NCBI GenBank assembly: GCA_964592775.1
Contig: CAZQFX010000004.1
Span: 1 to 40,166, forward strand
DNA: 40,166 bases
Direction: 5' to 3'
From: an uncultured Actinomycetota bacterium
GTDB lineage: Bacteria > Actinomycetota > Geothermincolia > Geothermincolales > RBG-13-55-18
The position numbers and the translations under genes were made by a program. Under the pieces are notes generated by a model. It had not been told where the DNA came from. It was given only the letters and a program-made list of their open reading frames with translations, and searched no databases. Shown here in pieces: positions 3,740-40,166 of this stretch (position 1 is the stretch's first letter; each line of letters starts with the position of its first letter).

Positions 3740-3767
3740 GCCACCCGCGCTTTTTTACAGAAGAACC
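3740..3767 (-). repeat. copy of the GGTTCTTCTCC..GCGTGGG repeat family (F1)
   Basis: The minus strand reads GGTTCTTCTGTAAAAAAGCGCGGGTGGC, close to GGTTCTTCTCCAAAAAGCGTGGGTGGC at 35385-35411. Confidence 0.6.
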
Positions 3768-3917
3768 TTGCAGAATATCCAGGTATATCAACCTGCGGGA
3801 AACGGGGGAGTACGTAAGGTGATATCCCGTAGAGAATCCCCTGACCGGGCTCGCCCCGGGCTGGAATATACCGGCTGGCGAGACCTCCAGCCGGGCGGTC
3901 CGGGCACCACGAGATGA

Positions 3918-5813
3918 TCAGTTGCTGTTGGGGACGACCGGCAGGATGAGGCGGGACGCCGCATCCCCGCGGTGGTGCAGGAGGATGAAGCTCAAACCCC
4001 AGACCGGCCAGGTCATCAGGAGATCCGCGGTGGCTATCTCCAGCTTGATCCGGCATCCTTTCCGGAAACGGCGGTAGCAGGCCTGCATCTCCACCGGTTG
4101 GCTACCGGTGTTGCTCATGGCCCAGGGTGTCCCGCTGTAACCCTCGTACCAGCCCCTGCTTACGAGCGTCTCCTTTCCGTCCGGCGAGACCTCGTAGATC
4201 CTGGGGATGAGCTGGGCGAAGTTCTGCGAGCACTGGTAGTACAACTGGAGGGTTGGCGGGCCCATGATGGTGATATCCTTGCTCAAGGGATCCGAAAGGT
4301 AGCTGCGCTCCGTTAACGGTATCTCGAGAAGCTTGATCTTGCTGGGGATATCCAATTTTTGCCAGCCGACCATCTCCGTCACGTCCTGGTAGTAAGGGAG
4401 CGATATCGAGCCCGTCACCCCGATGTTCAGCAGCAGGTTGGGTGAGGCGGTGTTCCCGCGCGGCCTGCGGGTGGAAAGCCTTCCTCCGTTAGAGGCATCG
4501 AGGTAAAGGGAGGTGAGGCGCGTGCCGGGCAGGGGATAGGCGCTGGCCGCGCCGTAGTTGGCGGGATCCCGGTCGCGGTAGTAGGAGAGCCGCGGCCCGC
4601 CTTCGGCTCCGTTGTCCACGCCCTTGAGGAAATGATCGAACCACATGCGCACCTGTTCCTCCACCCAGTCGTACTCCGGCCCTCCCGGGAGGTCGACGAA
4701 GAAGTTGTTGCCCATCCCCCCGATATGGCCGTGGTTGGTGATGATCATGCGCGCGGGGGCCTGCATGCAGGTGGAGAGCACCCGCAGGCCCTCGTTGGCA
4801 TAGAAGATGTCGTCGTTCCAGCCCGCCACCATGAGCATGGGGGCGACCATGGGGTGCTCGACGATGCCGTCGTACTCCTCGTCACACCAGTACCTGGCGG
4901 AACGGGCCTGCAGGTACTTCTTCCCGGCCTCGACGTCTTCCAGCCGCCGCTGCATGGCCGCCCCCACTAGCCACACGAGTTCTGGGGTCACGTTGCTGAA
5001 AGCGGGAGACACGCCGCCGAGCTTGCCGAGCGTACCGATGAGGGCGTTGAGCTTCTCCCACCCCCCCATGTCCTGGCGCATGATGATATTGAGGATGTTC
5101 TCGAACATGCCTGCGAGGTTCCCCCCGTACGACCCGATGACGAGGAAGACGCCCCAGAACGCCTTCGCCGCGCCGTTGGGCATGATGGAAAATACCAGGT
5201 CGGCGCCTCCGTGCATGGGAACCACGGCCCGTATCCGGGGGTCCCCGGGATCGCCCGGCCTGGGATCTTTACGGGGGGCCACCAGATAGGCAAGACAGCC
5301 GCCCATGGAATACCCGGTCACGCCGACCACCGGCCCCCTGTCGTCCCACGACACGGGGAAGCGCCCGTCCTCGCTTGCCAGGGTGATTATGTGCCTGATG
5401 TCGCGCACTTCGTACTCCGGGTCCATGCAGCCGATCTGGCCTTCCGCGCCGAACCAGCCTCTCACCGTGAAGGTGACGGTCACGTAGCCCTCGCTCGCGT
5501 ACTCCAGGGCCTGCCTCTCGAAGACGAGCTTGTCGGTGTCCCAGGGATGGATGAAGACAATGAGGGGGAAGGATGCACCCTTGCCGCTCGTGGCCGGATA
5601 GAAGACCGAGACGGGGAGCTTCGTGCCGTCCCACATGGCCCACGTCTCGTCCACCCGTCGGACCTCGTAGCCACCGGCCGGGGTCTCGGGTGCATCTGCG
5701 GCCGTCGCCGCGGTGATACCCTGCGCGGGCGATGGCGTCACTCCCGTTCCCAGGATGGCGAGTAGGATCAGCAGGGTGAATGTAATGGCTCTCCGGAAAG
5801 CGGAATACAGCAT
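3918..5813 (-). CDS. secreted alpha/beta hydrolase, CocE/NonD (X-Pro dipeptidyl-peptidase S15) family
   Basis: 631-aa ORF. RBS GGGGGGAGAG precedes ATG 5813. N-terminal signal peptide (ITFTLLILLAILGTGVTPSPAQG). Nucleophile elbow GYSMGG. A long C-terminal beta-rich domain is typical of CocE/NonD hydrolases. Confidence 0.85.
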   Translation of the reverse strand: MLYSAFRRAITFTLLILLAILGTGVTPSPAQGITAATAADAPETPAGGYEVRRVDETWAMWDGTKLPVSVFYPATSGKGASFPLIVFIHPWDTDKLVFERQALEYASEGYVTVTFTVRGWFGAEGQIGCMDPEYEVRDIRHIITLASEDGRFPVSWDDRGPVVGVTGYSMGGCLAYLVAPRKDPRPGDPGDPRIRAVVPMHGGADLVFSIMPNGAAKAFWGVFLVIGSYGGNLAGMFENILNIIMRQDMGGWEKLNALIGTLGKLGGVSPAFSNVTPELVWLVGAAMQRRLEDVEAGKKYLQARSARYWCDEEYDGIVEHPMVAPMLMVAGWNDDIFYANEGLRVLSTCMQAPARMIITNHGHIGGMGNNFFVDLPGGPEYDWVEEQVRMWFDHFLKGVDNGAEGGPRLSYYRDRDPANYGAASAYPLPGTRLTSLYLDASNGGRLSTRRPRGNTASPNLLLNIGVTGSISLPYYQDVTEMVGWQKLDIPSKIKLLEIPLTERSYLSDPLSKDITIMGPPTLQLYYQCSQNFAQLIPRIYEVSPDGKETLVSRGWYEGYSGTPWAMSNTGSQPVEMQACYRRFRKGCRIKLEIATADLLMTWPVWGLSFILLHHRGDAASRLILPVVPNSN

Positions 5814-5881
5814 CTCTCCCCCCTTCGTCGCAGCGTCTCCAGCCTGTACTCTTTCGATAGCGAAGTGTGCCAGCGGCCTTA

Positions 5882-6044
5882 GTGCACCGTTTCATAATTA
5901 CGGTTGCATTCGATCGCCGCTGCATCCCCACCCGCTGTGTTCCGCTCCCTGCGACGTACTCGCAGATTACGCCTCAGCCGCGCGCCTTGCGGGTGGGGCG
6001 CAGCGTCGCTCTCGATACGTCACCGTAATTACGAAACGGTGCAC
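5882..6044. mobile_element. MITE-like 163-bp element with 23-bp terminal inverted repeats and TTA flanking duplication
   Basis: GTGCACCGTTTCATAATTACGGT (5882-5904) matches the reverse complement of ACCGTAATTACGAAACGGTGCAC (6022-6044) at 22/23 positions. Both ends are flanked by direct TTA (5879-5881 and 6045-6047). The interior is also largely self-complementary (CTGCATCCCCACCCGC / GCGGGTGGGGCGCAG). The core 5943-5977 recurs inverted at 25927-25961. Confidence 0.6.
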
Positions 6045-6254
6045 TTAGTGAGGATAGTTTCGGGGAGGTGGCTACGTTCGTTGCTGCGAAATATGGGCCC
6101 GAGAACCGTGCATGCTTACCGGCCACCCCTCAGCTCTTCTTATTTATAACATCATGTAGCCGGACATTTCAAGCCGGTTTATTCAGACCGGGGTCTCGAA
6201 ACTCTGAATCTGCCTGAGCCGGGGGTCGCACCTCGGCCTGGGCCTGGAAGGAGA

Positions 6255-7716: not shown

Positions 7717-8175
7717 TCAGTACTGGCCCTGCGCCCTGGCCGCCTCCATGGCCTCCATGTAGCCCATGGTGGCATAGTAGATGGCGCGGTCGAAGTAGAG
7801 GACTACCTGGTTGTTGAGCTCCAGGGCCTGGTAGAGCTCGAGGTTGGTCTGCGTGAATCCTTCCGATATGACCTCGAGCCATAGGTAGCGCTTGAGAAGG
7901 ATGAGGGCCATGAGCTCCTCTTCCAGGCGGAAGCCCTCCTGGAAACGGCGCTGGCCCAGGTTCATGTAGAAGTGTCTTATCTCCTCCTGCCTGGTCTCCG
8001 GGCTGAGCCAGTATCCCAACCTCTCATAGACCGCCATGGCGCGCTCGAAGAGGAGTTCCTCGGGAAAATGGTGATAGGTGGGAGTGTGTCTGGACCGTTT
8101 TACCTCTTTGAGCCAGAGCTTGGCTACCTTGTCCGCCCGGGTCTCTATCAGCTTAATGAATCTTCTGGTCAGCAC
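7717..8175 (-). CDS. hypothetical protein, RsbRD_N-like (non-haem globin-type sensor fold) stand-alone domain
   Basis: 152 aa. GTG start with GGAGG 6 nt upstream. Coding-like GC3 throughout. The family assignment rests only on general resemblance. Confidence 0.6.
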   Translation of the reverse strand: MLTRRFIKLIETRADKVAKLWLKEVKRSRHTPTYHHFPEELLFERAMAVYERLGYWLSPETRQEEIRHFYMNLGQRRFQEGFRLEEELMALILLKRYLWLEVISEGFTQTNLELYQALELNNQVVLYFDRAIYYATMGYMEAMEAARAQGQY

Positions 8176-8247: not shown

Positions 8248-8364
8248 GGTTCTTCTCCGAGAAGTATACTTAACACCGTTGGGGTCAGTCATTCATGAAT
8301 CGAAGATCGATACTGCCCCTTCTGACTTACCTTCACATTCACCCACGCTTCTCGCATAAGAACC
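8248..8364. repeat. 117-bp unit bounded by inverted F1 arms
   Basis: GGTTCTTCTCCGAGAAG (8248-8264, +) and GGTTCTTATGCGAGAAGCGTGGGTG (8340-8364, read on -). The interior carries CGAAGATCGATAC (8301-8313). The left arm overlaps the -35 position of a minus-strand TATAAT (8235-8240) upstream of the 7717..8175 gene. Confidence 0.55.
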
Positions 8365-14316: not shown

Positions 14317-14437
14317 CAGGCCGAGGGGTCGAGCCTCGGCCTGGCGCAAACGACTATACGCGGCTGTTGTGGGATTATCTCCCAAGTGCACCCGTATCGA
14401 TACTGCCTTACGGGCAGATTCCGAGGCTCGACCCGCC
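14317..14437. repeat. inverted pair of the GGCCGAGGGGTCGAGCCTCGG repeat (F2)
   Basis: CAGGCCGAGGGGTCGAGCCTCGGCCTGG lies at 14317-14344. GGGTCGAGCCTCGG (14326-14339) is the exact reverse complement of 14421-14434. The interior holds GTATCGATAC. A tandem GACCCGCCAGG x2 follows (14430-14453). Confidence 0.7.
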
Positions 14438-14627
14438 AGGCGACCCGCCAGGCCTGACGGCACCCCGGCTCGATACGGAAGAACCAAGAAGGCGAGCGGA
14501 GAGGGGCCATGTTGCGGGCTTCCGTGAAGTGCTCAGCAAACCGGACCCTATCCGGCCGGTCACCCGCCGCTGTTGCCACCGCCCATCTCGTTACCATGGA
14601 GTGAGACGCTTTTGGCGGGTTCTTTTC

Positions 14628-14739
14628 CCTGCCGCCCTTCCTGCGCTCCTCCGGCGGCTGCAACTCCCGCATCAACGCCTGCCCGGCCCGGATGCTCTTG
14701 ACCTGCCGCCCTTCCTGCGCTCCTCCGGCGGCTGCAACT
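14628..14739. repeat. perfect 38-bp direct repeat, copies 74 bp apart (14628-14665 and 14702-14739)
   Basis: CCTGCCGCCCTTCCTGCGCTCCTCCGGCGGCTGCAACT occurs twice. Copy 2 lies inside the CBS gene 3' end and copy 1 just past its stop. Confidence 0.9.
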
Positions 14740-22280: not shown

Positions 22281-22286
22281 CATGGT

Positions 22287-24721: not shown

Positions 24722-25930
24722 ATGTCTCCAGGAAACGGAGGGACCGGCCGGCGGCGGGAGTGGCTTCATCATATCTTGTATATTCTCGCCGGCCTGGTCC
24801 TGGCGGCGGTCCTGTTCTCCCGTGGCGCCGGTGACGGCGCCGCTTTCCTCATCCTGCCGTTGCCCCTGCTGGGCATAGCCGTGCTCACCAACGTGGAGGC
24901 GGGCAAGAACCGCTTCGGCCGCTACAAGGAGTACGGCATCCCGGACATCGTCGGCTCCGATGGCCTGGTGGTGGAGACGGAGACCATGGAGGAGATCGAC
25001 GGCGCCATCGGGCGCATCCTGTCCCATGGGGAGCGCCTCATCTGCCTCAACGGCGGCGACGGGACCGTGCAGCGTACCGTGACCCATATGGTCAACAAGT
25101 ACGGGGAGGGAGCTGACCGCATCCCGTTGCTCTTCCCCTTGAGGGGCGGGACCATGAACCTGCTGGCCGACCACCTCGAGGTCAGGGGGACGCCGCCGGA
25201 TCTGCTGAAGGCCGCGATGAAAACCGCCTGCGGCACGCAGGACTTACCCTACGTGGAAGTGCCCACTCTGAGGGTGACGCGGGATATGGGCGGGGTAACG
25301 GCAAGGGAGTACGGCTTCTTCTACGGTAACGGGGCCCTCTACCGTTTCCACCGCGTCTATTACCGCGAGACCAACGGGGGGCCGGTGGCGGCGGCCGGCC
25401 TCTTCGCGAAATGCGCGCTCGGGGGAGCCATCAAGCGCACCCGTTACAAGGACGTCTTCGGGCTCACCCCGGCGAGGGTGCTCATCGACGATTTCGAGTT
25501 GCCCGCGGACCAGGTCACCGTGGTCCTGGCGGTCATCTTCAAGGTGGTGGTCATATCCTTCGACGCCTTCCGGGACGAAGGGGAAGGCGACTTCTACGTC
25601 CTGGCCACCAGCGTGCCCATCTTCAAGATGGCGCGCAAGCTGCCCAGGCTGCTGTGGGCGAGAGGCGCGGAGCCCCCCTATGCGAAAGAAGAGTTCTTCA
25701 ACCAGAGAGCCTCGCGGGTGATGATGGAATGCCGCGAGGGATACAGCCTGGACGGGGAGGTATTCGAGCTGGAGGAGCCCTACCGCCTGACCATCGAGAC
25801 GGGACCGAAGGTCAAGTTCCTTAACCTTAGGACCCAGGCCCATATATCCGGTAACGCATCGAGAGCGTCGAGAGCGTCGCTGCGCCACGCCGATTCATCC
25901 CGCGCCGTGCGGGACAAGGCGCGCGACTGA
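24722..25930 (+). CDS. membrane-anchored DAG-kinase catalytic-domain protein
   Basis: Internal ATG of ORF 24638..25930. Two N-terminal TM helices. LICLNGGDGTVQRTV (GGDGT) motif. The last ~30 codons lie in repeat-derived DNA. Confidence 0.75.
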   Translation: MSPGNGGTGRRREWLHHILYILAGLVLAAVLFSRGAGDGAAFLILPLPLLGIAVLTNVEAGKNRFGRYKEYGIPDIVGSDGLVVETETMEEIDGAIGRILSHGERLICLNGGDGTVQRTVTHMVNKYGEGADRIPLLFPLRGGTMNLLADHLEVRGTPPDLLKAAMKTACGTQDLPYVEVPTLRVTRDMGGVTAREYGFFYGNGALYRFHRVYYRETNGGPVAAAGLFAKCALGGAIKRTRYKDVFGLTPARVLIDDFELPADQVTVVLAVIFKVVVISFDAFRDEGEGDFYVLATSVPIFKMARKLPRLLWARGAEPPYAKEEFFNQRASRVMMECREGYSLDGEVFELEEPYRLTIETGPKVKFLNLRTQAHISGNASRASRASLRHADSSRAVRDKARD

Positions 25931-25961
25931 GGCGTACTCCGCGAGTACGTCGCAGGGAGCG
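25838..25961 (-). repeat. inverted, diverged copy of the interior of the 5882-6044 element
   Basis: CTGAGGCGTACTCCGCGAGTACGTCGCAGGGAGCG (25927-25961) matches the reverse complement of 5943-5977 at 32/35 positions. Homology continues through GGCGCAGCG.CGCTCTCGA and CGGT.ACG.ATCGAGAGCG. There is a local tandem CGAGAGCGT x2. Confidence 0.7.
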
Positions 25962-25995
25962 CAACCAGGTTTTCGCGCAGCGAAAACCTGGTTGC
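25961..25995. terminator. perfect 16-bp hairpin between convergent genes (no U-tract)
   Basis: GCAACCAGGTTTTCGC-GCA-GCGAAAACCTGGTTGC. Confidence 0.5.
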
Positions 25996-26106
25996 GGGGA
26001 GTCCGAGGCGAAGCAATCTCGATCGAGGCATCACGCCACTACGGGATGTTTATCAATACATGATGCAGCGGCTGCCTGTTGCGGGCGTATTTATGGATCG
26101 GGGTAC

Positions 26107-26946
26107 TCAGGTGTGGATAAGCAGGGTGGGGACCTCGGCCCGGGCCAGCACGCCCCGCACCGTTTCCGCCATCTTCTCGTGCAGCAGGCCGCGCCAGGAC
26201 AGCGCGATGAGGTCCTCGGCGTTTTCCATGGCGAAGCGCAGGGTGACCGCGTACGGGTTGCCCCGCCTGTGGAAGAGGCGCATCTGTGCATCGGGGTGGA
26301 GGTAGGCATAGAAGCGATAGAGGAATTCCTCGCTCCAGGCCGGCCAGTCGTATTGGGGATGATCGAGGTAACGGGGGCTGGCGAAGGTCTCCACTTCCAT
26401 GGGAGGTCTCTTCCTGTCTGCCGCGATGTGCAGGATGTCCAGGTCCAATTTCATCTCCCTGGCCAGGTCGAACACCTTCTTGATGACGCAATCCGCCAGC
26501 GAAAGGCCTTCCAGGGGAACCAGCATCCTCGCCGGACGCCAGTCCGTCCCGGGCGGCTCGCGCATGGCGGCTCGGATGACCATCACCGGGAAGGTCGAGC
26601 GCTGTATGAGATCGAGGGCGGTCTGGCCCGCCAGCCGCTCGGGATCGTTGGTCTTACCCTGGCCCGACATCACTATCATCCAGGCGCTCACGGACTCCGC
26701 CAGTTTCAGGATGGCCGCGGTCACATCCCCGCGTTTCTGGTGAAGGACGAAGTCCTTCTCCATCGGAGCGATATGCAGGTGCCGGGCCAGGCGGTGATGG
26801 GGCACGGGCTGGTCGGTGACGTGCACTACGTGCAGCACCCCGCCCACGAGCCGCGTCAGGGCACTGGCCGCCCCGAAGGCGCCGGCTGAAGTAACGGATC
26901 CGTCCAGGGGAAGGACTACTAATGGCCGCTGCCTGGCCGCCATCAT
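26107..26946 (-). CDS. tandem universal stress protein (2 x Usp domains)
   Basis: 279 aa with two UspA-like halves (LHVVHV.., ..MIVMSGQGKT.. and ..ILHIA.., ..LIALSWRG). ATGA overlap with the GH65 gene stop. Confidence 0.85.
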   Translation of the reverse strand: MMAARQRPLVVLPLDGSVTSAGAFGAASALTRLVGGVLHVVHVTDQPVPHHRLARHLHIAPMEKDFVLHQKRGDVTAAILKLAESVSAWMIVMSGQGKTNDPERLAGQTALDLIQRSTFPVMVIRAAMREPPGTDWRPARMLVPLEGLSLADCVIKKVFDLAREMKLDLDILHIAADRKRPPMEVETFASPRYLDHPQYDWPAWSEEFLYRFYAYLHPDAQMRLFHRRGNPYAVTLRFAMENAEDLIALSWRGLLHEKMAETVRGVLARAEVPTLLIHT

Positions 26947-29900: not shown

Positions 29901-30146
29901 GAATCCGTAGACCTCGGAGCCGCGGTTGGTGCAGATGTAGAGGTTGCGCTTGCGGGGGCCGGAGATGTAACGGGCGAACTGGCGTTCGATGTTGTCGTAG
30001 TTGGTGCCGGTGACCACCACCACGTAGACGTCCAGTTGCAGCAGGTCCTGCAGGGCGCGCGCCACCGGCCGGGCGTCGGCCGCGCGGTCTTTCACCGCGG
30101 TGCCGTCCCAGTCGAAGACGATTATGCGGTAAGCTTTTCTGTACAT
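26943..30146 (-). CDS. HAD-phosphatase-like domain fused to glycoside hydrolase family 65 phosphorylase (trehalose/kojibiose/maltose phosphorylase type)
   Basis: 1067 aa. N-terminal FDWDGTAV (DxDGT HAD motif I) and LGDE. Central/C-terminal GH65 signatures (HIFWDSEMFILPFF, (alpha/alpha)6 region). Confidence 0.9.
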   Translation of the reverse strand: MYRKAYRIIVFDWDGTAVKDRAADARPVARALQDLLQLDVYVVVVTGTNYDNIERQFARYISGPRKRNLYICTNRGSEVYGFDAHSELFLLYLREATDVENRALDLTAEAVKAEVEWGSSVTIDIVYNRLNRRKIDLIPEWPDPAKSQIGKLLKQTEKRLREGGYAPGIKGAYEATERFAREAGLADARITSDVKHVEVGLTDKSDSLRWILKEVAERRNIPYHDILVLGDEFGPIAGFEGSDFRMVLPGAEGITYLSVGKEPNGVPEEVEHPGGGPDEFMRIIKDQTNLHRLFRPTGDPTFLVVEEGYDPVREREVESILTVGNGYLGTRGSLAEEDEASSPATLVAGVFDRRSQQAPDEMPIFPDWLFTRIYVDDERLQMKRKNIVEHQRILDMYKGLLFRELLYEDITDRVTRVRFLHFASLADPHALALRVTVIPRNYTGELRVETGLRLNSRSNPSLQGVEMTTGADGTGVLVRAQTLFSNIDAAMAGRSRIADGFVEPQHSSSTDNTSVLEHWSWIGNIAQEVRLEKLVSVFTSLDGVEAERAALAHAEELAQRDFEELMLEHMAAWEERWKTAALRITGDPEAQRWANFATYHLISAGNADNERVSIGARALSGPIYKGHIFWDSEMFILPFFIFTHPATARAMIMYRYHTLDGARANAARNGYEGAQYAWESTGDGKEMTPPAALSPTGEVIPILSGHLEHHITADVAYGVWTYWNATRDGEFLLRAGAEILLETARFWASRVVLGDDGLYHILDVEGPDEYHEGVDDNLYTNMMAAYNLRHGAKVAKFLEEHHPEEWRLLRQKIALRAEEPGGWSAVADRMYGNGHGERGPLEQFAGYFGLEDIDVSRYEPLTASLDTILGRERTAGSQVVKQADVVMALYLLEDSYTPAVIRESFLYYDRRTAHGSSLSPSIYGLIAARLGMTREAMRYLRKAGTIDLGDNMGNAAGGVHAAALGGLWQLLVMGFAGVRAWDAGLFIDPKPPARWRRLRFSLTWRGAWLDFDIRRSRSMELRISGVEGLEVEVGIFGREPRLVRTRSRYVSTWSGKDWRDFEEEGGG

Positions 30147-30247
30147 CTCTTCGACCTCGTTCTTCTCTTCTTATAGTAAATCCCCTTGAGGTTGCAAGAG
30201 GAACAAGGGAAAGTTCCCCCGGTTGACAGGCGCGATAAAAGGCCGTC

Positions 30248-30326
30248 AGGCCGAGGGGTCTCAGGCCGAGGGGTCGAGCCTCGGAACCCGCCTGAGGCCG
30301 AGGGGTCGAGCCTCGAAACCAGCCTG
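30248..30326 (+). repeat. 2.4 tandem copies of a 32-bp F2 unit
   Basis: AGGCCGAGGGGTCGAGCCTCGGAACCCGCCTG (30263-30294) and AGGCCGAGGGGTCGAGCCTCGAAACCAGCCTG (30295-30326) match at 30/32 positions. They are preceded by the partial copy AGGCCGAGGGGTC (30248-30260). Each unit contains the CCGAGG/CCTCGG hairpin. Confidence 0.85.
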
Positions 30327-30441
30327 AGAGACCCGCGCGAAGCCAGTGCCCTCAGCAACCGTTCCTATAACAGCCATATGTGGCGACATGTGGCTCTTAT
30401 GCGGGAGGTGTGGCTGGCCATGGAGCCACTTGGTGGCCAGG

Positions 30442-30458
30442 CTTCTCGGAGAAGAGCC
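30442..30458 (-). repeat. F1 palindromic core CTTCTCGGAGAAGAGCC 10 nt upstream of a -35 box
   Basis: The reverse complement GGCTCTTCTCCGAGAAG closely matches 8248-8264. Confidence 0.6.
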
Positions 30459-30467
30459 GGGTTTATT

Positions 30468-30496
30468 TTAACAACGGTAAGGGTAACAGATATAAT
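30468..30496 (+). promoter_or_regulatory. sigma70-like promoter TTAACA-17-TATAAT for the GT4 gene
   Basis: Read directly from the sequence. The 5'UTR to ATG 30583 is about 80 nt. Confidence 0.55.
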
Positions 30497-30582
30497 ATGC
30501 AGAAATAATCCGGCACTCTTACCGTATAGTAGAAGATCCCGCCTCGCGGCGGGTGGATATATCGCTGAGGAGGTTGCGGGGT

Positions 30583-31623
30583 ATGCGCATCGCGATGATA
30601 GCTCCGGTCTGGATCCCCATCCCCCCCGAGGGATACGGGGGGATAGAGAGGATGCTCAAGCTCCTGGTGGACGAACTCGTGGCCATGGGGGAGGAGGTGA
30701 CCCTCTTCGCCGCGGGACCCAGCCGTACGCGGGCGCGGCAGAGGATCACCATCGAGGAAGCCCCTACGAAGCACATGGGTGAAACCCTCTTCGACGCCTA
30801 TCATGTCGGGAAGGCATACCGCGATGTCGCCGCGGGGGAATACGACATCGTGCACGATCACGCGGGCTTACTGGGCACGGCATTCGCCCGCCTGCTCCCG
30901 CTACCCGTCGTGCACACCCTGCACGGTCCCTTCACCCGCGATTCGCGTACGTTCTACGAGGCCTTCAAGGACGACTGCTATTACGTGGCCATCAGCAGCC
31001 GGCAGATGGAGGGCTGTCCCGGCCTGCGGTACCTCGGCGTGGTCGCCAACGCCGTGGACATCGAGGAGCATCGCTTCCAGGCGGAGAAGGAGGACTACCT
31101 GGTCTGCGTGAGCCGCATATGCGAGGCGAAGGGGACGGAACATGCGGTTCGGCTGGCGTTGCAGACGGGCAACCGCATCCTTCTGGCCGGTAAGATAGAC
31201 CCCGGCCGGGACCGGGAGTACTTCGAATCGCGCGTCGAGCCCCTCCTCGATGGCGAGCGGGCGGATTATCTCGGCGAGGTGTCCCAGAAGGAGAAGGTCC
31301 GGCTGGTGGCCGGCGCGCGCGCCTTCCTCTTCCCCATCCAGTGGGAGGAGCCCTTCGGCCTGGTGATGGTGGAGGCGATGGCCTGCGGCACGCCCGTTCT
31401 CGCCACGCGCCTGGGGGCCGTACCGGAGGTGGTGGAGCACGGGGTCACCGGTTTTCTGGCCGATTCCCCCGAGGAACTGGCTCCATATATCGGACGCATA
31501 GACGAGCTGGACCCGCTGGCTTGCAGGCTGGCCGCCGAGAAAAGGTTCAGCCCCCGGGTGATGGCGGAGAGTTACCTTGATGTCTACCGGCGGGCCCTGG
31601 AGATACATGCCGGCGGGCTGTAA
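30583..31623 (+). CDS. glycosyltransferase family 4
   Basis: Internal ATG with GAGGAGG RBS in ORF 30553..31623. MRIAMIAPVWIPIPPEGYGGIE at the N-terminus. EPFGLVMVEAMACGTPV (E-x7-E region). Confidence 0.9.
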   Translation: MRIAMIAPVWIPIPPEGYGGIERMLKLLVDELVAMGEEVTLFAAGPSRTRARQRITIEEAPTKHMGETLFDAYHVGKAYRDVAAGEYDIVHDHAGLLGTAFARLLPLPVVHTLHGPFTRDSRTFYEAFKDDCYYVAISSRQMEGCPGLRYLGVVANAVDIEEHRFQAEKEDYLVCVSRICEAKGTEHAVRLALQTGNRILLAGKIDPGRDREYFESRVEPLLDGERADYLGEVSQKEKVRLVAGARAFLFPIQWEEPFGLVMVEAMACGTPVLATRLGAVPEVVEHGVTGFLADSPEELAPYIGRIDELDPLACRLAAEKRFSPRVMAESYLDVYRRALEIHAGGL

Positions 31624-31705
31624 CCCCCGGGGTCGGACCCTGGATCCTTGGCCCTGGAGAAACGGCGGACAATCGGTTAGATCAACGGGCAGGGTTAAAG
31701 GTCCA

Positions 31706-31716
31706 GGTTCTTCTCC
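31706..31716 (+). repeat. F1 core GGTTCTTCTCC 12 nt upstream of the metY -35 box
   Basis: An exact 11-mer shared with 8248, 35242, 35385 and 40080. Confidence 0.5.
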
Positions 31717-31727
31717 AGGTACCCCTA

Positions 31728-31756
31728 TTGACAAGGGGGGCATTAAGCGGTTAAAT
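31728..31756 (+). promoter_or_regulatory. sigma70-like promoter TTGACA-17-TTAAAT for the metYXW operon
   Basis: Read directly from the sequence. It predicts a leader of about 275 nt. Confidence 0.55.
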
Positions 31757-31859
31757 GTCTACAAAGTAGATAGGAAATATAGAGATATGTCAAGAGCGTG
31801 GCGTGAAGCATGAAAAAAGGGAATGCAACGGTGAATAAGACTAAAGGATTGGAAAAACC

Positions 31860-31996
31860 TGGTCTGATGATCGCATGCTGTATGGCCATGCGTCACAGCC
31901 CGGGAGCGGGAGGAACACCTATGTAGCGCATCAAGGTTGACCGCGAAAGTACGAACTCCCGCAGCCGGGTATGGATTGGCAGGCGGGTTTTTTATT
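31860..31996 (+). promoter_or_regulatory. riboswitch-like leader: closing helix, internal hairpins, antiterminator/terminator switch upstream of metY
   Basis: GGUC+UGAUG (31861-31869) pairs with CAUCA..GACC (31929-31942). Hairpins cGCAUG..CAUGCg and CCCG-GGAG-CGGG are present. GCGGGAG (31906-31912) is complementary to CUCCCGC (31956-31962), which is also the 5' arm of the terminator CCCGCAGCC..GGCAGGCGGG+UUUUUU (31958-31996). Confidence 0.45.
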
Positions 31997-32025
31997 CCGG
32001 AAATGCCCCAGGCAAGATGTGATGA

Positions 32026-33333
<1,308 letters not shown>

Positions 33334-33398
33334 CAAGCAGGGACGGGGCGGAGCCTTGACCGGAATCGGCTTTCCATTCAACGCTCGTTCTGAAGGGA

Positions 33399-34541
33399 GT
33401 GGAAATATTGCATAACGGAATCGGTATAGTCGAAACGCAATACTTCACATTCGCCGGTCCTCCCGGTCGGTTTACCCTGGACAGCGGCGAGGAGCTGGGG
33501 CCGGTCACCGTAGCGTACGAGACATACGGGGCCCTGAACGGGGAGCGCTCCAATGCCATCCTCGTGGCCCACGCGTTTTCCGGCGATGCCCACGCCGCGG
33601 GATGGCACGAGGGCGCGAACAAGCCCGGCTGGTGGGATGGCATGATCGGACCGGGCAAGGCCTTCGACACCAATAGGTACTTCGTGATCTGCTCCAACGT
33701 GCTCGGGGGATGCAAGGGAACGACGGGCCCGTCATCGATCAACCCGGCGACGGGGAGACCGTACGGTACAGCTTTCCCGCTCATAACCATCCCGGACATG
33801 GTTGGGGTGCAGGCCAAGCTCCTTGACCACCTCGGCATCGCCAGGCTCCTTTCCGTCGCCGGCGGCTCCATGGGCGGTCAGCAGGTGCTGGAGTGGCTTG
33901 TGTCTCACCCCGAGCGGGTGAGAAGCGCGATAGTCATAGCGACCGCGGCCAGGCATTCCCCCCAACAGATCGCCTTCAACGAGGTTGGCCGCCAGGCTAT
34001 CATGGCGGACCCCAATTGGAAGGGCGGGCGCTATTATGGCGGAGACCTTCCGGCAAAGGGGCTGAGCGTGGCGCGGATGGTCGGCCACATCACCTACATG
34101 AGCGATAAATCGATGGCCGAGAAATTCGGCCGGCGCGCGGGAAGAAACGGCGAAGCACGGCCTTTCAGCAACGGTTTCGAGGTCGAGGATTACCTGCATT
34201 ACCGGGGCTTGAGTTTCGTGGGCCGCTTCGACGCCAATTCCTACCTGTATATAACCAGGGCCATAGACGATTACGACGCTTCGCGGGGTGGAAATCTTGC
34301 CAATGCCTTCAGGGGCTTGGAGGCCAAGACGCTGGTCGTTTCCTTCAAGTCCGATTGGCTTTATCCATCCTACCAGTCAGTCGAGATAGTGCGTGCGTGC
34401 AAAAGGGCGGGCGCCGACGTGACCTATTGCGAGATCAGTTCCACCTACGGCCATGACGCTTTCCTCCTGGAGGTCCATGAGCAGGCAAAACTGATTACGC
34501 ATTTCCTGCTGAAAACATATGGGGGGGAAACACGAAGATGA
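33399..34541 (+). CDS. metX: homoserine O-acetyltransferase
   Basis: 380 aa. GTG 33399 is the track start; TTG 33408 has better spacing from GAAGGGA. GGSMGG nucleophile elbow. The GHDAFL motif is near the C-terminus. Confidence 0.95.
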
Positions 34542-35167
34542 GGGCCGTGAAGGACGGGGTGGAACATGACACGATAGCGGGCTGGGTGAAGTACGGATCA
34601 TCCGTCCTGGAGCTAGGCTGCCGCGATGGAAGTCTGCTGGAGCGCCTTGTCGCCGAAAAGGGCGTGAAGGCGCAGGGCGTCGAGCCGGATGATGAATCCA
34701 TATTCCTTTGTGTCGAGAAGGGCCTTTACGCACTCCACGAGCAGGCTGACACCGCATTGCACGATTACGCTGATGATTCGTTCGACTACGCCATATTCGA
34801 TCGCAGCCTCCAGCGCGTGGCCGGGAAACCGGAAAAAGTCCTAGAGGAAGCCCTGAGGGTAAGCAGGCGTACAATCGTCGGGTTTTCCAATTTCGCTCAC
34901 TACCGCGCGCGCTATCAGATATCGATGAGGGGCCGGACCCCGGTGACGCAATCGTTGCCATACCACTGGTACGATACGCCCAACCTTCATTTCCTGAGCA
35001 TCGGCGATTTTTCCGACTACTGCGGATCGAAAGGCATTCGGATCGAGGAAGCCGCCTTTTTCGGAAGGCGCGGCGCTATCGGATTGTGGCCTAACCTGAG
35101 GGCGCTCTCCGGCTTCTTTCTGATCTCGAGGCGATCACCACGATGCCAACCGCCATCCAGGAGGTAG
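34538..35167 (+). CDS. metW: methionine biosynthesis protein MetW
   Basis: 209 aa. ATGA overlap with met[13 protein letters not shown] methyltransferase-like motif. [11 protein letters not shown] is typical of MetW. Confidence 0.9.
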
Positions 35168-35173
35168 GAGAAG

Positions 35174-35281
35174 ATGTCCGGCGAGCTGTACGGCATTGTT
35201 GAAGCGATCGGCGGAACCCCGTTGGTCAGATTGAACGAAGTGGTTCTTCTCCCAGTAGTGTGGGTAGAGAAATACAGGTGA
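35174..35281 (+). pseudogene. 5' fragment (about 23 codons) of a cysteine synthase / cystathionine beta-synthase-family gene
   Basis: A strong AGGAGG RBS, then MSGELYGIVEAIGGTPLVRLNEV. The IGxTPLVRLN motif is the conserved N-terminus of CysK/CBS PLP enzymes. Homology stops at 35241 where the F1 repeat starts, and a stop follows 12 codons later. No remainder of the gene lies in the window. Confidence 0.55.
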
Positions 35282-35328
35282 TTTAGCGTCAATACGGAAA
35301 AGAGCTGGTAGTTAAGGTATGGGCACAC
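35241..35328 (+). repeat. 88-nt long form of the F1 repeat, copy A
   Basis: 78/88 identical by hand alignment to 40079-40166. It begins TGGTTCTTCTCCCAGTAGTGTGGGTAGAGA and ends GTTAAGGTATGGGCACAC. Confidence 0.85.
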
Positions 35329-35356
35329 CATCGCATATCAAATGCCATCCAGATAG

Positions 35357-35407
35357 CCCACACTTTATGGCGAAGAGCCAGAGGGGTTCTTCTCCAAAAA
35401 GCGTGGG
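35357..35407 (+). repeat. F1 hairpin: 23-nt arms, 5-nt loop
   Basis: CCCACACTTTATGGCGAAGAGCC-AGAGG-GGTTCTTCTCCAAAAAGCGTGGG, with 19 Watson-Crick pairs and 1 G.U pair out of 23. Confidence 0.8.
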
Positions 35408-35613
35408 TGGCGAGAAAGGGATTGCATGATGACGGGATCGGGTCCGACCCCAAAGGCCACTCATGCTTCACGGAGACGAACCCAATATAATAGGTCGTGG
35501 AGCCTGCTGCACAAACCACGGCCGGATGTTGAAGGAGTCTGAACGCAATGCGACACTACTGGTTTATGCAACGGGCTCTGTGGTCCGAAAGCGTTGCCTA
35601 AGGCGGTAAGCGG

Positions 35614-36723
35614 GTGTTCTACGACGTGATGGCCATGGGAGCGGGGCCGGGCGGCTGCATGGCCGCCAGGACGCTCACGGGCGCCGGTTTCAGGGTGGTC
35701 CTGCTGGAAAAGGAGAGGATCCCCCGCGACAAACCCTGCGGCGGCTTCCTCTCGCCCCAGGCCGTTTCACACATCGAGGAAGCTTTCGGGCCCATCCCCG
35801 GCGACTGCCGCTCCTCCCCGCAGCGGGCACTCGGCGCCCGTCTGCTCTGTGAAGGCGGGGGCGATTACGAACTCCCTTTCTCCGCACCCGGCTCGTCTGT
35901 CGTGCGTTCACGCCTGGACGCCTTTCTTGCCGCGGGTTGCGGAGCCACGGTCATGGACGGCTGCGAGGTGGAGGGCCTCGAAGTGGGGCGCTTTCGCGTG
36001 AAAGCGCGATTGAAACCCCTCGAGGGAGGGGAAGAGACGGTGGAAGCGACCTATCTCCTGGCCGCGGACGGAGCGGACTCCATGGCGCTGCGCTCTCTCC
36101 GCCCCGAGTTCCACCGTACTTATGCGGCTCCGCGCCTGCAGCGGAGCATGTTGGTGCTCAGCGGCGGGAGGATGGAATGGGATCCGGAGTGGATGGGCCT
36201 CGTGCTCATGCGGAAAGGTTCGGGTATCGCGCGCTTTTTCGCAAAGGACGGCCTTATCGGCCTGGCGGTGAACCATGGCGGCGCCAGGGGGTGGCGGGAA
36301 GAGCTGGACGGGCTCACCGCCTTCCTGCGGCGGAGTGTGGGACTGCGGGTCGAAGGAGAGACCATGCGCCAGATAACGGCCTCCAACCGCATGGCGGCCG
36401 GAGGGCATTATAACCTGGGAGCGGGATGCGCCCTGCTGGCGGGGGAGGCGTCCGGGCTCCTGGACCCCTGGGGCTTCGGCATCCGCCTGTCATTGGAGAG
36501 CGGGCGCGTGGCCGGGGAGTCCATCGTGGAGAGCGCGGGGGAAAGCATCACGCCCCACATCCGCTACCGCTACCGCATGCGGGAAATACTGGAGCGTGAG
36601 CTCAGGCAGCGCCGCGACCTCAGCGGCGGAATGGGGGATCTGGAAACCGCGTCCCTGGCCGGTGACAGGAGCCGCGCCGCCCGGCGTGACAGGCGCGCCC
36701 TGCGCCGCCGCTTCTCGAAGTGA
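35614..36723 (+). CDS. FAD-dependent oxidoreductase (geranylgeranyl reductase-like family)
   Basis: 369 aa. GTG start. YDVMAMGAGPGGCMAA dinucleotide fold, LLEKE, and LLAGEASGLLDP near the C-terminus. The tail is Arg-rich. Confidence 0.8.
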   Translation: MFYDVMAMGAGPGGCMAARTLTGAGFRVVLLEKERIPRDKPCGGFLSPQAVSHIEEAFGPIPGDCRSSPQRALGARLLCEGGGDYELPFSAPGSSVVRSRLDAFLAAGCGATVMDGCEVEGLEVGRFRVKARLKPLEGGEETVEATYLLAADGADSMALRSLRPEFHRTYAAPRLQRSMLVLSGGRMEWDPEWMGLVLMRKGSGIARFFAKDGLIGLAVNHGGARGWREELDGLTAFLRRSVGLRVEGETMRQITASNRMAAGGHYNLGAGCALLAGEASGLLDPWGFGIRLSLESGRVAGESIVESAGESITPHIRYRYRMREILERELRQRRDLSGGMGDLETASLAGDRSRAARRDRRALRRRFSK

Positions 36724-36732: not shown

Positions 36733-37479
36733 TCAGGGGCTATAGCGGAAGTGCTCGTACCATCGCATGGGCTGCTCCGGGCCCTGGGCGAGCAGGGTCC
36801 ACAGCGCCGAGGCGATGCTCTTTGCCCCCTGCAGCGCCAGCCTCCCCCGCAGGCCGGGAACGGCCAGCACGGGGGGGAATTCACCCGGCGTGGCCTGGGG
36901 AGACTCCTTGCGGGCTTCCTTTTTTGCCAGGGGCAGCTCGATGACGGCCAGGCAGCATGGATCCCCCTTGGAAAGCAGGCTGGTGATCTTGGGCACCGCG
37001 AGGTCGGGGTTGAGCACGGAGAAGGTGCCGGCCTCCAGGGCCATCATCAGGCGGGTGCAGACGTCGGGGCAGGCGGCAAGCTCCCCCGCCGCCGGGCAGT
37101 ACCGTTCCTCCTTCACCGCCCTTCCTCTGGTCTCCTCGGTCCAGACGCCCTTCACTCCGGCCAGGCCGTCCTCGTAGTCGAGCACGCGCCCCAGGCTGCG
37201 CGCGTCACGGGGGTCGATATGCAGGGCCTCGCGGAGGATGGGGGCGCGCTCCTCCCCGATGCGGTAGAAGACGTACTGCAGAGCGCGCACCCCCGGCTCC
37301 CCGTAACGCTCGTACAGTTCCGGCAGGAGCCGGGTCAGCCCGCGCATCACCAGGCGGATGGGGACCTCGCGATGCCAGGCGGGGTCCAGCAGGTCCTTAG
37401 GCCGGGGGTGAAACGACCTTACCGCCAGGCCGTAGCCTACGGCAGAGGCAAAAAGCGCGCGTTTCGCCTTCTTGAACAA
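36733..37479 (-). CDS. hypothetical Cys-containing protein (possibly ATC-hydrolase-like fold)
   Basis: 248 aa with coding-like composition. YCPAAGELAACPDVC ... GDPCC motifs. The family call is only a resemblance. Confidence 0.55.
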   Translation of the reverse strand: MFKKAKRALFASAVGYGLAVRSFHPRPKDLLDPAWHREVPIRLVMRGLTRLLPELYERYGEPGVRALQYVFYRIGEERAPILREALHIDPRDARSLGRVLDYEDGLAGVKGVWTEETRGRAVKEERYCPAAGELAACPDVCTRLMMALEAGTFSVLNPDLAVPKITSLLSKGDPCCLAVIELPLAKKEARKESPQATPGEFPPVLAVPGLRGRLALQGAKSIASALWTLLAQGPEQPMRWYEHFRYSP

Positions 37480-37555
37480 GCTCCATCACTCCTCTTTGCG
37501 TCGTTTCGTCCCGGGTGACGAGACACCATGGCCGCCCGGAACCCGGGTATCGGGT

Positions 37556-38662
37556 TCACGGCGCCAGGGGGCGGTTGACGTCGATCTCCACCACTTCCCC
37601 CGTTGCCGCCCTGGCGGCGAAGACGATGCCCTTGGAGTTGTACTCCATGATGGTCAGCTCCTCGCCCTGAAAGTTCATGGTGCTCTGCCTCTCCGGCGGC
37701 CCGAATTCCTTCACCGCGTCCGCCGAAGGCGAGCCGATGCCCACGCCCTTGGGCGTCTTTCCGGCGTAGGGGGAACGCACGCCTACCGAAACCACGATGT
37801 CGAAATCCCCCAGGGCGTCGTTCCTGTCCATGTCCTCCATGTAGACGTTAAGCTTCCAGGGGCCGTATCCGCCGGTATAGGTGGCGAAGACCAGCCCCTC
37901 GGTGGTGAAGCCGGCGCTGTCGGGGGCCCCGTACTTCTCCTTCACCCTCCTGAACTCGTCATCGATGTTTATGCCCGCCACCGTCTGGCCGGGAACGATG
38001 GGGGCCGACCCGTTCACGCCGAAAAGCCCGCCCTGCGCGTCGCCTCCGTCGCCCTGTTCCTCAACGGGGCGCAATCCTCCGTAGGCGGCCACCACCACCG
38101 TTATCACCCCGTCTTTCCGCGCGATGAGGAACTCCACTCCCTTCCGGCCGTACGAATACAGCTGCAGCTTCTCGCCCTCCGGCCCCTGGGTCTCGGTGAT
38201 GCTCTCGCAGGGCCCGAACTCCCCCTCCACGTCGCCCGGCGTGCTCCCCATCCCCACGCCGCCGGAGGTCAGGCCGTAGTAGGGCGCAGACACCTCCACC
38301 GCCCCCACCTCGTCGGCGGCGTCGAGGTAGCCGTTGCCGCCGTCGTACAGGGTGACCACCATGCGCCAGGAGGCGGGATCGTTTATGTCCCCCCCCTCGC
38401 GCGTCCTGGCGTAGTAGGCGTAGTGGTAGCCGCCGTCCTCGAGGTTCAGCTCGGGGTCGCCGTGCGCTTCCCGCACCGCCGAGTAAGGGTCGCCGATATT
38501 GACCTCGGCCACGGAGTATCCGGGCACGATGGGATCGCGGTCCCAAGCGGAGAGATCCACCCCGCCGCCGCCGCACCCGGCCGGCGCGGCGGCGGCGGTT
38601 GACATGGCCAGCGCCGCTGACGCCAGGCGGGCGGTGAGCGTTTTCGCCCGGTTCTTTCCCAT
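37556..38662 (-). CDS. lipoprotein with internally duplicated domain
   Basis: 368 aa. Signal peptide ending AAAPAGC. Two homologous halves: PIVPGYSVAEVNIGD..GVGMGSTPGDVEGEFGPCE..GVEFLIARKDGVITVV and PIVPGQTVAGINIDD..GVGIGSPSADAVKEFGPPE..GIVFAARAATGEVVEI. Confidence 0.75.
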   Translation of the reverse strand: MGKNRAKTLTARLASAALAMSTAAAAPAGCGGGGVDLSAWDRDPIVPGYSVAEVNIGDPYSAVREAHGDPELNLEDGGYHYAYYARTREGGDINDPASWRMVVTLYDGGNGYLDAADEVGAVEVSAPYYGLTSGGVGMGSTPGDVEGEFGPCESITETQGPEGEKLQLYSYGRKGVEFLIARKDGVITVVVAAYGGLRPVEEQGDGGDAQGGLFGVNGSAPIVPGQTVAGINIDDEFRRVKEKYGAPDSAGFTTEGLVFATYTGGYGPWKLNVYMEDMDRNDALGDFDIVVSVGVRSPYAGKTPKGVGIGSPSADAVKEFGPPERQSTMNFQGEELTIMEYNSKGIVFAARAATGEVVEIDVNRPLAP

Positions 38663-38668
38663 CTCCGC

Positions 38669-39244
38669 CTATTCCCCCTCCCACTCTTGCTTCGCGCTTC
38701 CGTCTCCGAGGCCGCGCCGGGTGTAGACTACGGGGATGTCCATGGCACGCGCCACGCTCTCGACGATGAGGAAGGCCTTGGCGCGGTTTTCCGCGGGAGC
38801 CCCGGTCGTGCCGGAGCGGAAGAGCTTCATGGGACGGCCGTTCTTTCGTTTCAGGCAGACGCGGACGAAATAGGAGAGGTCCCTCCTGGAGGTTTGCCCT
38901 CCTTCCGCGGTGGGGACGCGGGGCGACTCGGCGACCTCCACTTCCTCCAGGTCATCCCGGCCCAGGCGGCGGCGGCTGGAAATGAAATAACGGTAGCGTT
39001 CCAGCGTCAGTTCGCGTGCGGCGGGGTCGACGGAGACGTAGGTGGGGGAGGAGAAGATGGCGAACATGCTGTAGAAGAGCAGGACCACGCAACTGATACC
39101 CAGGGGGAGGCGCATGATCCCGATGGTGGCCAGCACGGCGAAGGTGACCGAAGTGTAGAAGATAAAGGCGTGGATGCCCTCCCACGGGCCTCCCCGGACC
39201 TCGAACTCCATGCGTTCGCCTGCCCTCGCGGCCGCCTCCGCCAT
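38669..39244 (-). CDS. hypothetical membrane protein (2 TM helices + soluble C-terminal domain)
   Basis: 191 aa. AGGAGG RBS. Hydrophobic segments AFIFYTSVTFAVLATIGIM and ISCVVLLFYSMFAIF. The stop lies 6 nt before the lipoprotein ATG. Confidence 0.7.
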   Translation of the reverse strand: MAEAAARAGERMEFEVRGGPWEGIHAFIFYTSVTFAVLATIGIMRLPLGISCVVLLFYSMFAIFSSPTYVSVDPAARELTLERYRYFISSRRRLGRDDLEEVEVAESPRVPTAEGGQTSRRDLSYFVRVCLKRKNGRPMKLFRSGTTGAPAENRAKAFLIVESVARAMDIPVVYTRRGLGDGSAKQEWEGE

Positions 39245-39379
39245 TTTTCCTCCTGACCTCTGGTCCCTTGTCCCAGGCGGCTCTTACCGCTGCCATTATA
39301 ACCTATGGGAGGACGGCTTCCCCGGTCAAATGCGAGCGTATTCATGGACCTGGGTACCGGGAACCCGCGTAGCGGAGGA

Positions 39380-39634
39380 TCAGTCACCGGTGACCTTGTA
39401 GACGACGTCGTGTTCGCGCGCATGCCCTTCGGACTTGATGCCGACGACGTCGCCGGGACCCGCCCTCTCCACCTGGTCGTGTTCTATCTGCATGGACGAC
39501 ACCACCTGGGTCCAATCGGAGGTATGCCCCTTGATGTGGATGGTATCTCCCACCTTCAGCTCGTCCTCGAGTTCGATCGCCGCGACGCTGATATGGCCGA
39601 AGAAGTGCGTGACCCTCCCGATTTGCTTCTCCAT
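39380..39634 (-). CDS. small EF-Tu domain-2-like (translation elongation factor-like) protein
   Basis: 84 aa. RBS GGAAGGGAGG. IGRVTHFFGHISVAAIEL..GDTIHIKG..GDVVGIK beta-barrel pattern. Confidence 0.7.
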   Translation of the reverse strand: MEKQIGRVTHFFGHISVAAIELEDELKVGDTIHIKGHTSDWTQVVSSMQIEHDQVERAGPGDVVGIKSEGHAREHDVVYKVTGD

Positions 39635-40047
39635 GGTTCACCTCCCTTCCCGTCACGATAAACGGCGCTCCCGGGTCTCACCCCGTTCCCCGCAGGGATG
39701 AGCCGATCGCGGTTATATAAAAAGCTACCCCGTTACCGAGGGCATGAAACCGTTTACCGAGAGAGCGCGGGTACGCCCGACCACCGCCGTTCTATGCCAT
39801 TTTTCGGGAGGGGCGGCCGTAAATCCTGCGACGCCGTCCATGCCCCTAGCGCCGGGACCGCTTCGCGCGGTCCAGAGGAAAAGCTGCCGGCCGTTGGCCG
39901 CCGCCTCGCGGTCGGGTCATGCCGGCGGGCGGCGCTCCGCGCCAGGTCTGGAATCTTGGATTCCGAAAGAATGGCGCATTGATGCATGATCATAAGGCAC
40001 AATCGTAAGATCCAAGACCTGTCCCCGTTCATCTTCCTGCCCGATCG

Positions 40048-40166
40048 CCCACACTTCTCGAGACCATGTTATATAATATGGTTCTTCTCCCAGAAGCGTG
40101 GGTAGAGAGACGCAAGTGATTTAGCGCGAGTACGGAAAAGAGCTGGCAGTTAAGGTATGGGCACAC
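40048..40166 (+). repeat. F1 inverted arms flanking ATGTTATATAATAT, then the 88-nt long form, copy B (runs off the right edge)
   Basis: CCCACACTTCTCGAGACC (40048-40065) is an imperfect reverse complement of GGTTCTTCTCCCAGAAGCGTGGG (40080-40102). Positions 40079-40166 match 35241-35328 at 78/88. Confidence 0.8.

Follow-up and report, generated by a model that had tools for sequence, protein, structure and literature searches.

The window analysed here, i.e. the whole of contig CAZQFX010000004.1 from an uncultured Actinomycetota bacterium (40,166 nt, 63.7% G+C), carries a family of short repeats, GGTTCTTCTCC..AAGYGTGGG, which an earlier note on this DNA had described as interspersed and hairpin-forming. 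The repeat is real, as the pattern GGTTCTTCTCCNNRAAGYGTGGG has seven matches in the window with up to three mismatches, with 0.00 expected and none found in 100 dinucleotide-preserving shuffles. Rather than being isolated hairpins, the copies form pairs of terminal inverted repeats that bound discrete non-coding units of 67-138 bp, none of which holds a gene called by a codon-likelihood caller, and in five units of the window the two ends can be seen facing each other. The repeats are very probably the ends of MITEs (miniature transposable elements with inverted repeats) derived from the ISL3 family of insertion sequences, together with fragments of such elements, scattered between genes.

Repeat copies and paired ends in the window

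The units and partial copies are as follows, with the strand given where one was assigned:

3649..3767: E0, degenerate 119-bp MITE (profile and site reading)
3649-3672: left end of E0, GGTTTCTCTGCAATAAGTGTGGAC
3740-3767: right end of E0, reverse complement GGTTCTTCTGTAAAAAAGCGCGGGTGGC
8248..8364: E1, 117-bp MITE, ends GGTTCTTCTCCGAGAAGTATA and reverse complement GGTTCTTATGCGAGAAGCGTGGGTGAATG
30392..30458: E2, 67-bp MITE, scarcely more than two ends, GGCTCTTATGCGGGAGGTGTGGC / GGCTCTTCTCCGAGAAGCCTGGC
31706..31718, plus strand: solo left-end fragment of 11-13 nt, GGTTCTTCTCCAG, upstream of the metY leader
35242..35379, plus strand: E3, 138-bp MITE of the '137-bp subfamily', downstream of metW
35385..35482: E4, 98-bp MITE, 5 bp past E3 in a tail-to-head junction
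40044..40065, minus strand: right-end remnant, reverse complement GGTCTCGAGAAGTGTGGGCGAT, about 4-5 outer nt missing
40080..40166, plus strand: E6, a second E3-type unit of which the contig holds the left 87 nt before it ends

Convergent genes (a DUF4349 gene ending at 3598 and an S15 peptidase gene ending at 3918) flank E0, which contains a GGCCGAGGGG...CCCCTCGGCC hairpin in its interior, E2 is located between the divergently oriented GH65 and GT4 genes, and the other units are found between co-directional genes. E1 is 73 nt upstream of the minus-strand gene 7717-8175, and the FAD-oxidoreductase gene at 35614 begins 132 nt downstream of E4, whose right flank is CAATATAATAG. The ends of E3 are asymmetric (left GGTTCTTCTCCC..., right GGCTCTTCGCC...). 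E6 is preceded by a 14-bp A+T-rich spacer (ATGTTATATAATAT), which separates it from the remnant at 40044-40065, for which no partner end was found. The 88-nt repeat formed by 40079-40166 and 35241-35328, each including one flanking T, is 89% identical.

These ends were located by site reading, by a fuzzy scan and by a profile that was built only from copies outside the window and then run on it. The profile finds the ends at 40080, 35385, 35242, 8248, 8364 and 30458 at E<=2e-4 and those at 35482, 35378 and 40060 at E<0.1 (E1: 1e-5 and 5e-5; E4: 6e-8 and 0.03; E6: 3e-8; remnant: 0.088), and the ends, of 24-26 nt with the consensus GG(T/C)TCTTCTCC-NNN-AAG(T/C)GTGGGT(A/G), are of the ISL3 type. 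Nearly all copies listed previously were recovered at their coordinates, i.e. 3740-3767, 8248-8264, 8340-8364, 30442-30458, 35241-35328, 35357-35379, 35385-35420, 40048-40065 and 40079-40166. At 31706-31716 the sequence is present, although it amounts to an end fragment of 11-13 nt and not a full copy (profile E=0.32), and is too short to be called an element; the supposed degenerate copy at 14606-14631 has no support (E=78). Moreover, three partner ends were missing from the previous list (3649-3672, 30392-30418 and 35456-35482), and it is these that identify the copies as paired ends of discrete units. The statement that no copy lies inside an intact gene agrees with the gene and open reading frame (ORF) annotation of the window.

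Copies in relatives and full-length ISL3 elements

A scan for the exact end pattern GGTTCTTCTCCNNNAAGYGTGGG in one genome per species, covering 185,579 species, returned 98 stretches. According to the record titles, 95 of these belong to four metagenome-assembled genomes (MAGs) of uncultured Actinomycetota: CAYHAT01 (66), SURF_21 (26), Zod_Metabat.1188 (2) and Candidatus Hakubella thermalkaliphila (1). The remaining three comprise one complete insertion sequence (L066, see below) and two isolated Bacteroidota matches, L031 (Ohtaekwangia) and L054 (Sphingobacterium), which have neither a partner end nor a transposase and were treated as chance. The copies are thus multiple and dispersed, with at least 66 loci in a single MAG. 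Within the Actinomycetota the placement of the MAGs sharing the repeat is uncertain. The MetW protein of the window has at most 71% identity to its closest homologues, of which the named ones come from MAGs called Actinobacteria or Candidatus Geothermincolia.

The family occurs in many copies, at which assemblies break. Assemblers typically stop at multi-copy repeats, and many CAYHAT01 contigs end 50-55 nt inside the repeat. Likewise, as the window is an entire contig that stops 87 nt inside E6, its assembly broke inside the repeat, and a search for exact protein matches to three window genes, by which the contig might have been extended, gave none or only a 1.7-kb contig. The value of the units lies mainly here, i.e. 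in annotation and assembly, since they explain contig breaks in MAGs of a little-known actinobacterial clade (Geothermincolia, Hakubellales, SURF_21).

Paired ends delimit units of 64-386 bp at the loci retrieved. Target duplications were assessed for 29 such pairs from outside the window, plus one pair of 1355 bp. The 8-bp flanks match at 7 or more of 8 positions in 19 of the 29 units (10 perfect; mean 6.2), as compared to none of the 29 (mean 1.7) in a control shifted by 8 nt. Among 127 well-matching ends each position of the logo G G T T C T T C T C C is conserved to at least 93%, the flank positions -11 to -1 contain 64-83% A+T vs a background of 40% in the same loci, and there is a preference for G at -12 and for T at -11.

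The E3-type units form a subfamily of their own. E3 aligns nearly gap-free with units of 136-138 bp in L057, L077, L108, L109, L115, L116, L117 and L111, and a second scan, of metagenomes, yielded 11 contigs from one project that carry 137-bp units. These align nearly gap-free with E3, E6 and CAYHAT01 units, i.e. with units of other lineages, and their length stays at 136-138 bp; the ends of this subfamily are near-invariant and the interiors strongly diverged. This combination of constant length, near-invariant ends and diverged interior is expected of an old MITE subfamily that is propagated via its ends. Of seven 137-bp units from metagenomes, four have duplications matching at 8/8, 6, 6 and 6 positions and the other three lack one. 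A metagenome scan with a 36-nt pattern from the E3/E6 interior had no matches, which is uninformative as the copies differ by about 11%.

The ends are also found on complete insertion sequences:

L066:644-1998: full-length insertion sequence, 1355 bp, ends GGTTCTTCTCCAAAAAGTGTGGGTGAG and GGTTCTTCTCCAATCTGTATGGGTAAA, perfect 8-bp duplication AAATTTTT
L100:249-1607: full-length insertion sequence, 1359 bp, ends GGTTCTTCTCCCAACGGTGTGGGTAAAA and GGTTCTTCTCCAATTCGTGTGGGTTCG, perfect duplication ATATAGGA

The single ORF of L066 (416 aa) matches PF01610 DDE_Tnp_ISL3 (4e-73), PF13542 HTH_Tnp_ISL3 and the NCBIfam model NF033550 'ISL3 family transposase' (315 bits, cut-off 180). L100 was identified via homologues of this transposase, whose contigs were fetched; its own transposase is 62% identical to that of L066. 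The L100-type element has about 60% G+C, and two contigs consisting of the element only (L101, L102) have 59-60%. A third, more distant element has GGCTCTTCACGGTAAAGTGTGGGTAAA, and the end signature thus emerges as a property of one ISL3 subgroup. Of the 26 positions of the window consensus, about 21-23 agree with the ends of L066 and L100. On three further contigs with an ISL3 transposase (P0173), L103, L104 and L105, the 8-bp flanks of the ISL3 copies are permuted, i.e. each left flank equals the right flank of another copy (TTAAAATA, AAAAATGA, TTTATTAT), a pattern suggestive of copies recombining with each other or of joins made by the assembler across the repeat.

With its GGTTCTT start, the logo of the 127 ends agrees with the inverted repeats of the ISL3 family, which begin with GGCTCTT or GGTTCTT. 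Described elements of this family include ISArsp7 from Arthrobacter, which has inverted repeats GGCTCTTCGCGG... and an 8-bp direct repeat (PMC6305408). ISArsp7, L066 and L100 share with the window units ends that start with GG(C/T)TCTTC (ISArsp7: GGCTCTTCGCGGTTGGTGGTGAAT), and these full-length elements, each about 1.35-1.45 kb long, have 8-bp duplications and encode one DDE_Tnp_ISL3 transposase; in contrast, the window units contain no transposase, are 10-20 times shorter and have only the terminal ~24 nt in common with them. The suggestion that the repeats constitute a MITE family is therefore borne out by terminal inverted repeats of non-autonomous elements and by the same ends on full-length ISL3 elements with 8-bp duplications. 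The earlier note had not recognised the sequence as a described REP, MITE or operator; ISL3-derived MITEs with GGCTCTTCG ends are known. In Microcystis aeruginosa PCC 7806 an ISL3 transposase mobilises a 187-nt MITE whose ends start with GGCTCTTCG and which is flanked by 8-nt direct repeats (PMC11448079). Like the units described here, it is short and non-coding, has imperfect terminal inverted repeats that start with GGCTCTTCG / GGTTCTTC as in ISL3 elements, folds into a stem-loop, occurs in many copies and has 8-nt direct repeats, which in the present family are found in the relatives. The two differ in phylum (Cyanobacteria vs uncultured Actinomycetota) and in end sequence beyond the first ~8 nt. 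Furthermore, the Microcystis MITE has a matching transposase in the same genome and its recent insertion was observed (PMC11448079), whereas in the present lineage a search for the partner transposase found none, and direct repeats are missing from the window copies. The meaning of the repeats is ordinary: they represent mobile DNA of a sort common in bacteria and no novel regulatory site, and raise no new biological question.

We infer that the units are mobilised in trans. A MITE unit would be immobile by itself; the ISL3 DDE transposase of a full-length element in the same cell would recognise both ends and insert the unit at an A+T-rich site, thereby duplicating 8 bp. In a genome with 60-64% G+C, A+T-rich sites would fall between genes and often resemble -10 boxes.

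Several observations weigh against an origin from ISL3 elements. Movement was never directly seen, and no convincing similarity between window units and full-length elements extends beyond the first ~24 nt. When the transposases of L066 and L100 were searched for in the window and in every retrieved locus (tblastn and phmmer), only the full-length elements matched, i.e. neither the window nor any MITE-bearing locus of the Actinomycetota MAGs and metagenome contigs has an ISL3 transposase gene, and the hosts of L066 and L100 are other or unidentified organisms outside the lineage of the window. Finally, the 8-bp flanks of the five complete window units match at only 0-4 of 8 positions (E0: 4, read by eye; E1 and E2: 3; E3: 4; E4: 0), so that no duplication is recognisable, and when other lengths and offsets are considered the longest word shared by the flanks has 3-5 nt. 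As E3 and E6 are still 89% identical, simple decay is insufficient to explain this loss. Age, recombination between copies, intramolecular (replicative) transposition or insertion beside resident copies are plausible causes. Given their divergence, their missing duplications and the absence of a transposase in the vicinity, the window copies are probably old relics. The end sequence and the candidate transposases L066 and L100 could be used for a transposition tool or a mobility study in such organisms.

Insertion sites, promoters and pairing

According to a rough home-made codon-likelihood gene caller, which was trained on the Pfam-confirmed genes of the window and applied to the related loci, 77 of the 81 insertion sites in the interior of contigs fall between genes. 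Of these, 63 could be classified, i.e. 33 as tandem, 19 as divergent and 11 as convergent, and these shares (52/30/17%) are indistinguishable from the respective shares of intergenic length (52/28/20%). The distance from the copies to gene starts is not fixed. In the window, the flanks of the ends contain 68% A+T vs 36% in the whole window and 46% in host intergenic regions, in line with the target preference of the relatives. The insertion bias is thus intergenic and A+T-seeking, not promoter-specific, and the TATAAT-like boxes beside the ends can be attributed to this A+T-rich target preference. The units act as markers of intergenic sites rich in A+T, and an annotator could take them for regulatory motifs or structured RNAs.

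The earlier note had proposed that the family carries or recruits promoters and had placed four copies at promoters. Only one of the four, at 30468-30496 (TTAACA-17-TATAAT, 11/12), passes a consensus scan; the other three do not, and promoter-like sites are no more numerous in the window than in shuffles. Read outward (...CACTTCTCGGAGAAGAACC), the end offers no TTGACA-like hexamer and no good -35 box, the best candidate being TTCTCG. Together with site classes that follow intergenic length, this leaves the proposal unsupported, and a positional bias towards promoters is not seen among the classifiable sites in relatives. At 31730-32037, i.e. from a promoter-like TTGACA-17-TTAAAT sequence to the start of metY (O-acetylhomoserine sulfhydrylase-type), a leader of about 300 nt is found. 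Ahead of a metY-type gene a leader responsive to methionine or S-adenosylmethionine is expected; this one has no Rfam match at E<=1 and may perhaps be an undescribed responsive leader.

The promoter data also bear on the idea that units of MITE origin were subsequently exapted, i.e. that ends or whole units were co-opted as promoter-building or regulator-binding modules, for example by donating a -35-like box. Such a role has precedents, as ISL3 insertions in Enterococcus faecium and Streptococcus pneumoniae create hybrid promoters via a donated -35 box (PMC13216065, PMC13142319), and here, too, an ISL3-type end is placed immediately upstream of a -10-like box at an intergenic A+T-rich site. 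Moreover, E2 ends 10 nt ahead of the 11/12 promoter-like site, E1, E4 and the 31706 fragment are located upstream of gene starts, and five window copies retain a perfect outer 11-nt sequence despite the lost target duplications. However, in E. faecium and S. pneumoniae the outward end carries TTGACA and promoter activity was measured (PMC13216065, PMC13142319), whereas the ends described here have no comparable -35 box and are known from sequence only. Apart from the single promoter that passes the scan and the shuffle-like site counts, E0 lies between convergent genes, the site classes in relatives track intergenic length, and conservation between E3 and E6 is not higher at the ends than in the interiors (2/24 vs about 8/64 differences). 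We thus consider exaptation unlikely. A further reading holds that the units are kept through co-option as promoter-adjacent or protein-binding modules, or that they are repeatedly re-mobilised by ISL3 elements visiting horizontally. Its basis is that two MITE families, the ISL3-type one and that of 5878-6048 (see below), are common to several deep-branching lineages of uncultured Actinomycetota from the subsurface and hot springs, and that in the window the ends are well kept and the duplications lost, with no matching transposase found in those lineages; it, too, appears improbable.

A further proposal took the palindrome CTTCTC-N-GAGAAG in the core of the repeat for the operator of a global transcription factor. 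The palindrome exists in those copies in which the variable triplet is GAG, and positions 12-14 are G/A/G in 73-85%, i.e. in about three quarters of the copies in relatives; an operator would also agree with the intergenic location of all copies. The palindrome is absent, however, from the well-conserved ends at 35242, 35385 and 35379 and from both full-length elements, L066 and L100, and is therefore not the recognised feature. In addition, the copies form inverted pairs 64-386 bp apart that are flanked by 8-bp duplications, their ends have a DDE transposase as partner, pairing shows no covariation (see below), the distance to gene starts is not fixed, and convergent regions are used as often as expected. 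Operator sites are thus a very unlikely explanation. The interior motif GGGGTCNGNCC, shared by several subfamilies, occurs five times in the window vs 1.8 expected, a count reached by 3 of 100 shuffles and therefore marginal. A near-palindrome, TTGGGGTC(A/G)GACC, is found inside otherwise unlike subfamilies, i.e. in E1 (8279-8290), E4 (35438-35453), CAYHAT01 (as TTTGGGGTCAGACCTCAAAA) and SURF_21 (as ATAGGGGTCGGCCCTGGACTTAT).

The hairpins formed by facing arms are real, but not all of one kind: some join the two ends of one unit, others the abutting ends of neighbours (35379/35385 and 40065/40080). Each of the five window units forms an end-to-end fold of greater stability than its shuffles, with z-scores of -3.1 to -4.7 (E0: -50 kcal/mol, z -3.5; E1: -3.95; E2: -4.7; E3: -3.1; E4: -4.2), as follows from the inverted orientation of their ends. 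RNAalifold gives -9.9 kcal/mol for 12 units with a covariation term of +0.77 and invariant end pairs, i.e. no support from covariation, and the units have no match in Rfam even at E<=1 (30100-35700). There is no evidence for selection on pairing itself.

Folding of this sort had suggested repetitive extragenic palindromic (REP)-like elements, whose DNA hairpins are processed by an HUH enzyme of the Y1 type (RAYT, REP-associated tyrosine transposase, or IS200-type). REPs and bacterial interspersed mosaic elements (BIMEs) with RAYT are indeed short, intergenic, hairpin-capable and present in many copies, and the 18-23-bp hairpins of facing arms as well as the end-to-end folds of whole units would suit such a substrate. 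In contrast to the paired DDE-type ends and 8-bp duplications found here, REPs are palindromic units of 20-40 nt that depend on a Y1 HUH enzyme and have no target duplication; HUH/Y1 elements are not known to make 8-bp target duplications. As, moreover, the ends belong to DDE ISL3 elements and the stems show neither covariation nor an Rfam family, we regard processing by a Y1 enzyme as extremely unlikely. No Y1 transposase was found among the 20 window ORFs scanned, which is not an exhaustive Y1 scan of the window ORFs.

Other repeats and features of the window

A second MITE-like family is represented by a 171-bp unit at 5878-6048 with 27-nt terminal inverted repeats (CTTAGTGCACCGTTTCATAATTACGGT, 93% complementary) and by a partial inverted copy near 25.9-26.1 kb (25915-25965 and 26062-26111). 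The unit is 82-84% identical to L111:11577-11750, L005:5298-5430 and L110:13102-13159, so that both families, this one and the ISL3-type MITEs, are found together in the same lineages. Three copies of a palindromic 21-nt repeat, GGCCGAGGGGTCGAGCCTCGG, are present on the plus strand (14319-14339, 30264-30284 and 30296-30316; 0.04 expected), two of the copies being arranged in tandem, 32 nt apart, beside E2, and it resembles the GGCCGAGGGG...CCCCTCGGCC hairpin inside E0; it could be a REP-like or terminator-like family.

Two direct repeats are also present. One is an exact repeat of 38 nt, CCTGCCGCCCTTCCTGCGCTCCTCCGGCGGCTGCAACT, at 14628-14665 and 14702-14739 (74 nt from start to start), beside the unsupported copy at 14606-14631; the other comprises 39 nt at 22282-22320 and 22440-22478 (87% identical, 158 nt apart) in the gap after the gene 20193-22235, where a 29-nt piece (22385-22413) is identical to a sequence in L045. 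On the minus strand, 36733-39634 holds four consecutive ORFs with good coding scores (36733-37479, 37556-38662, 38669-39244 and 39380-39634), the first three of which were compared with Pfam and matched no family at E<=0.01. Finally, 2455-2530 on the plus strand matches the Rfam family Intron_gpII, i.e. domains V-VI of group II introns, and scores 51.5 bits, above the gathering score of 40 (E 2e-7 for the window). The match, immediately upstream of the annotated GTG start of the DUF4349 gene, also overlaps this start, and as no reverse-transcriptase ORF is evident nearby it may be an ORF-less intron or a 3' fragment.

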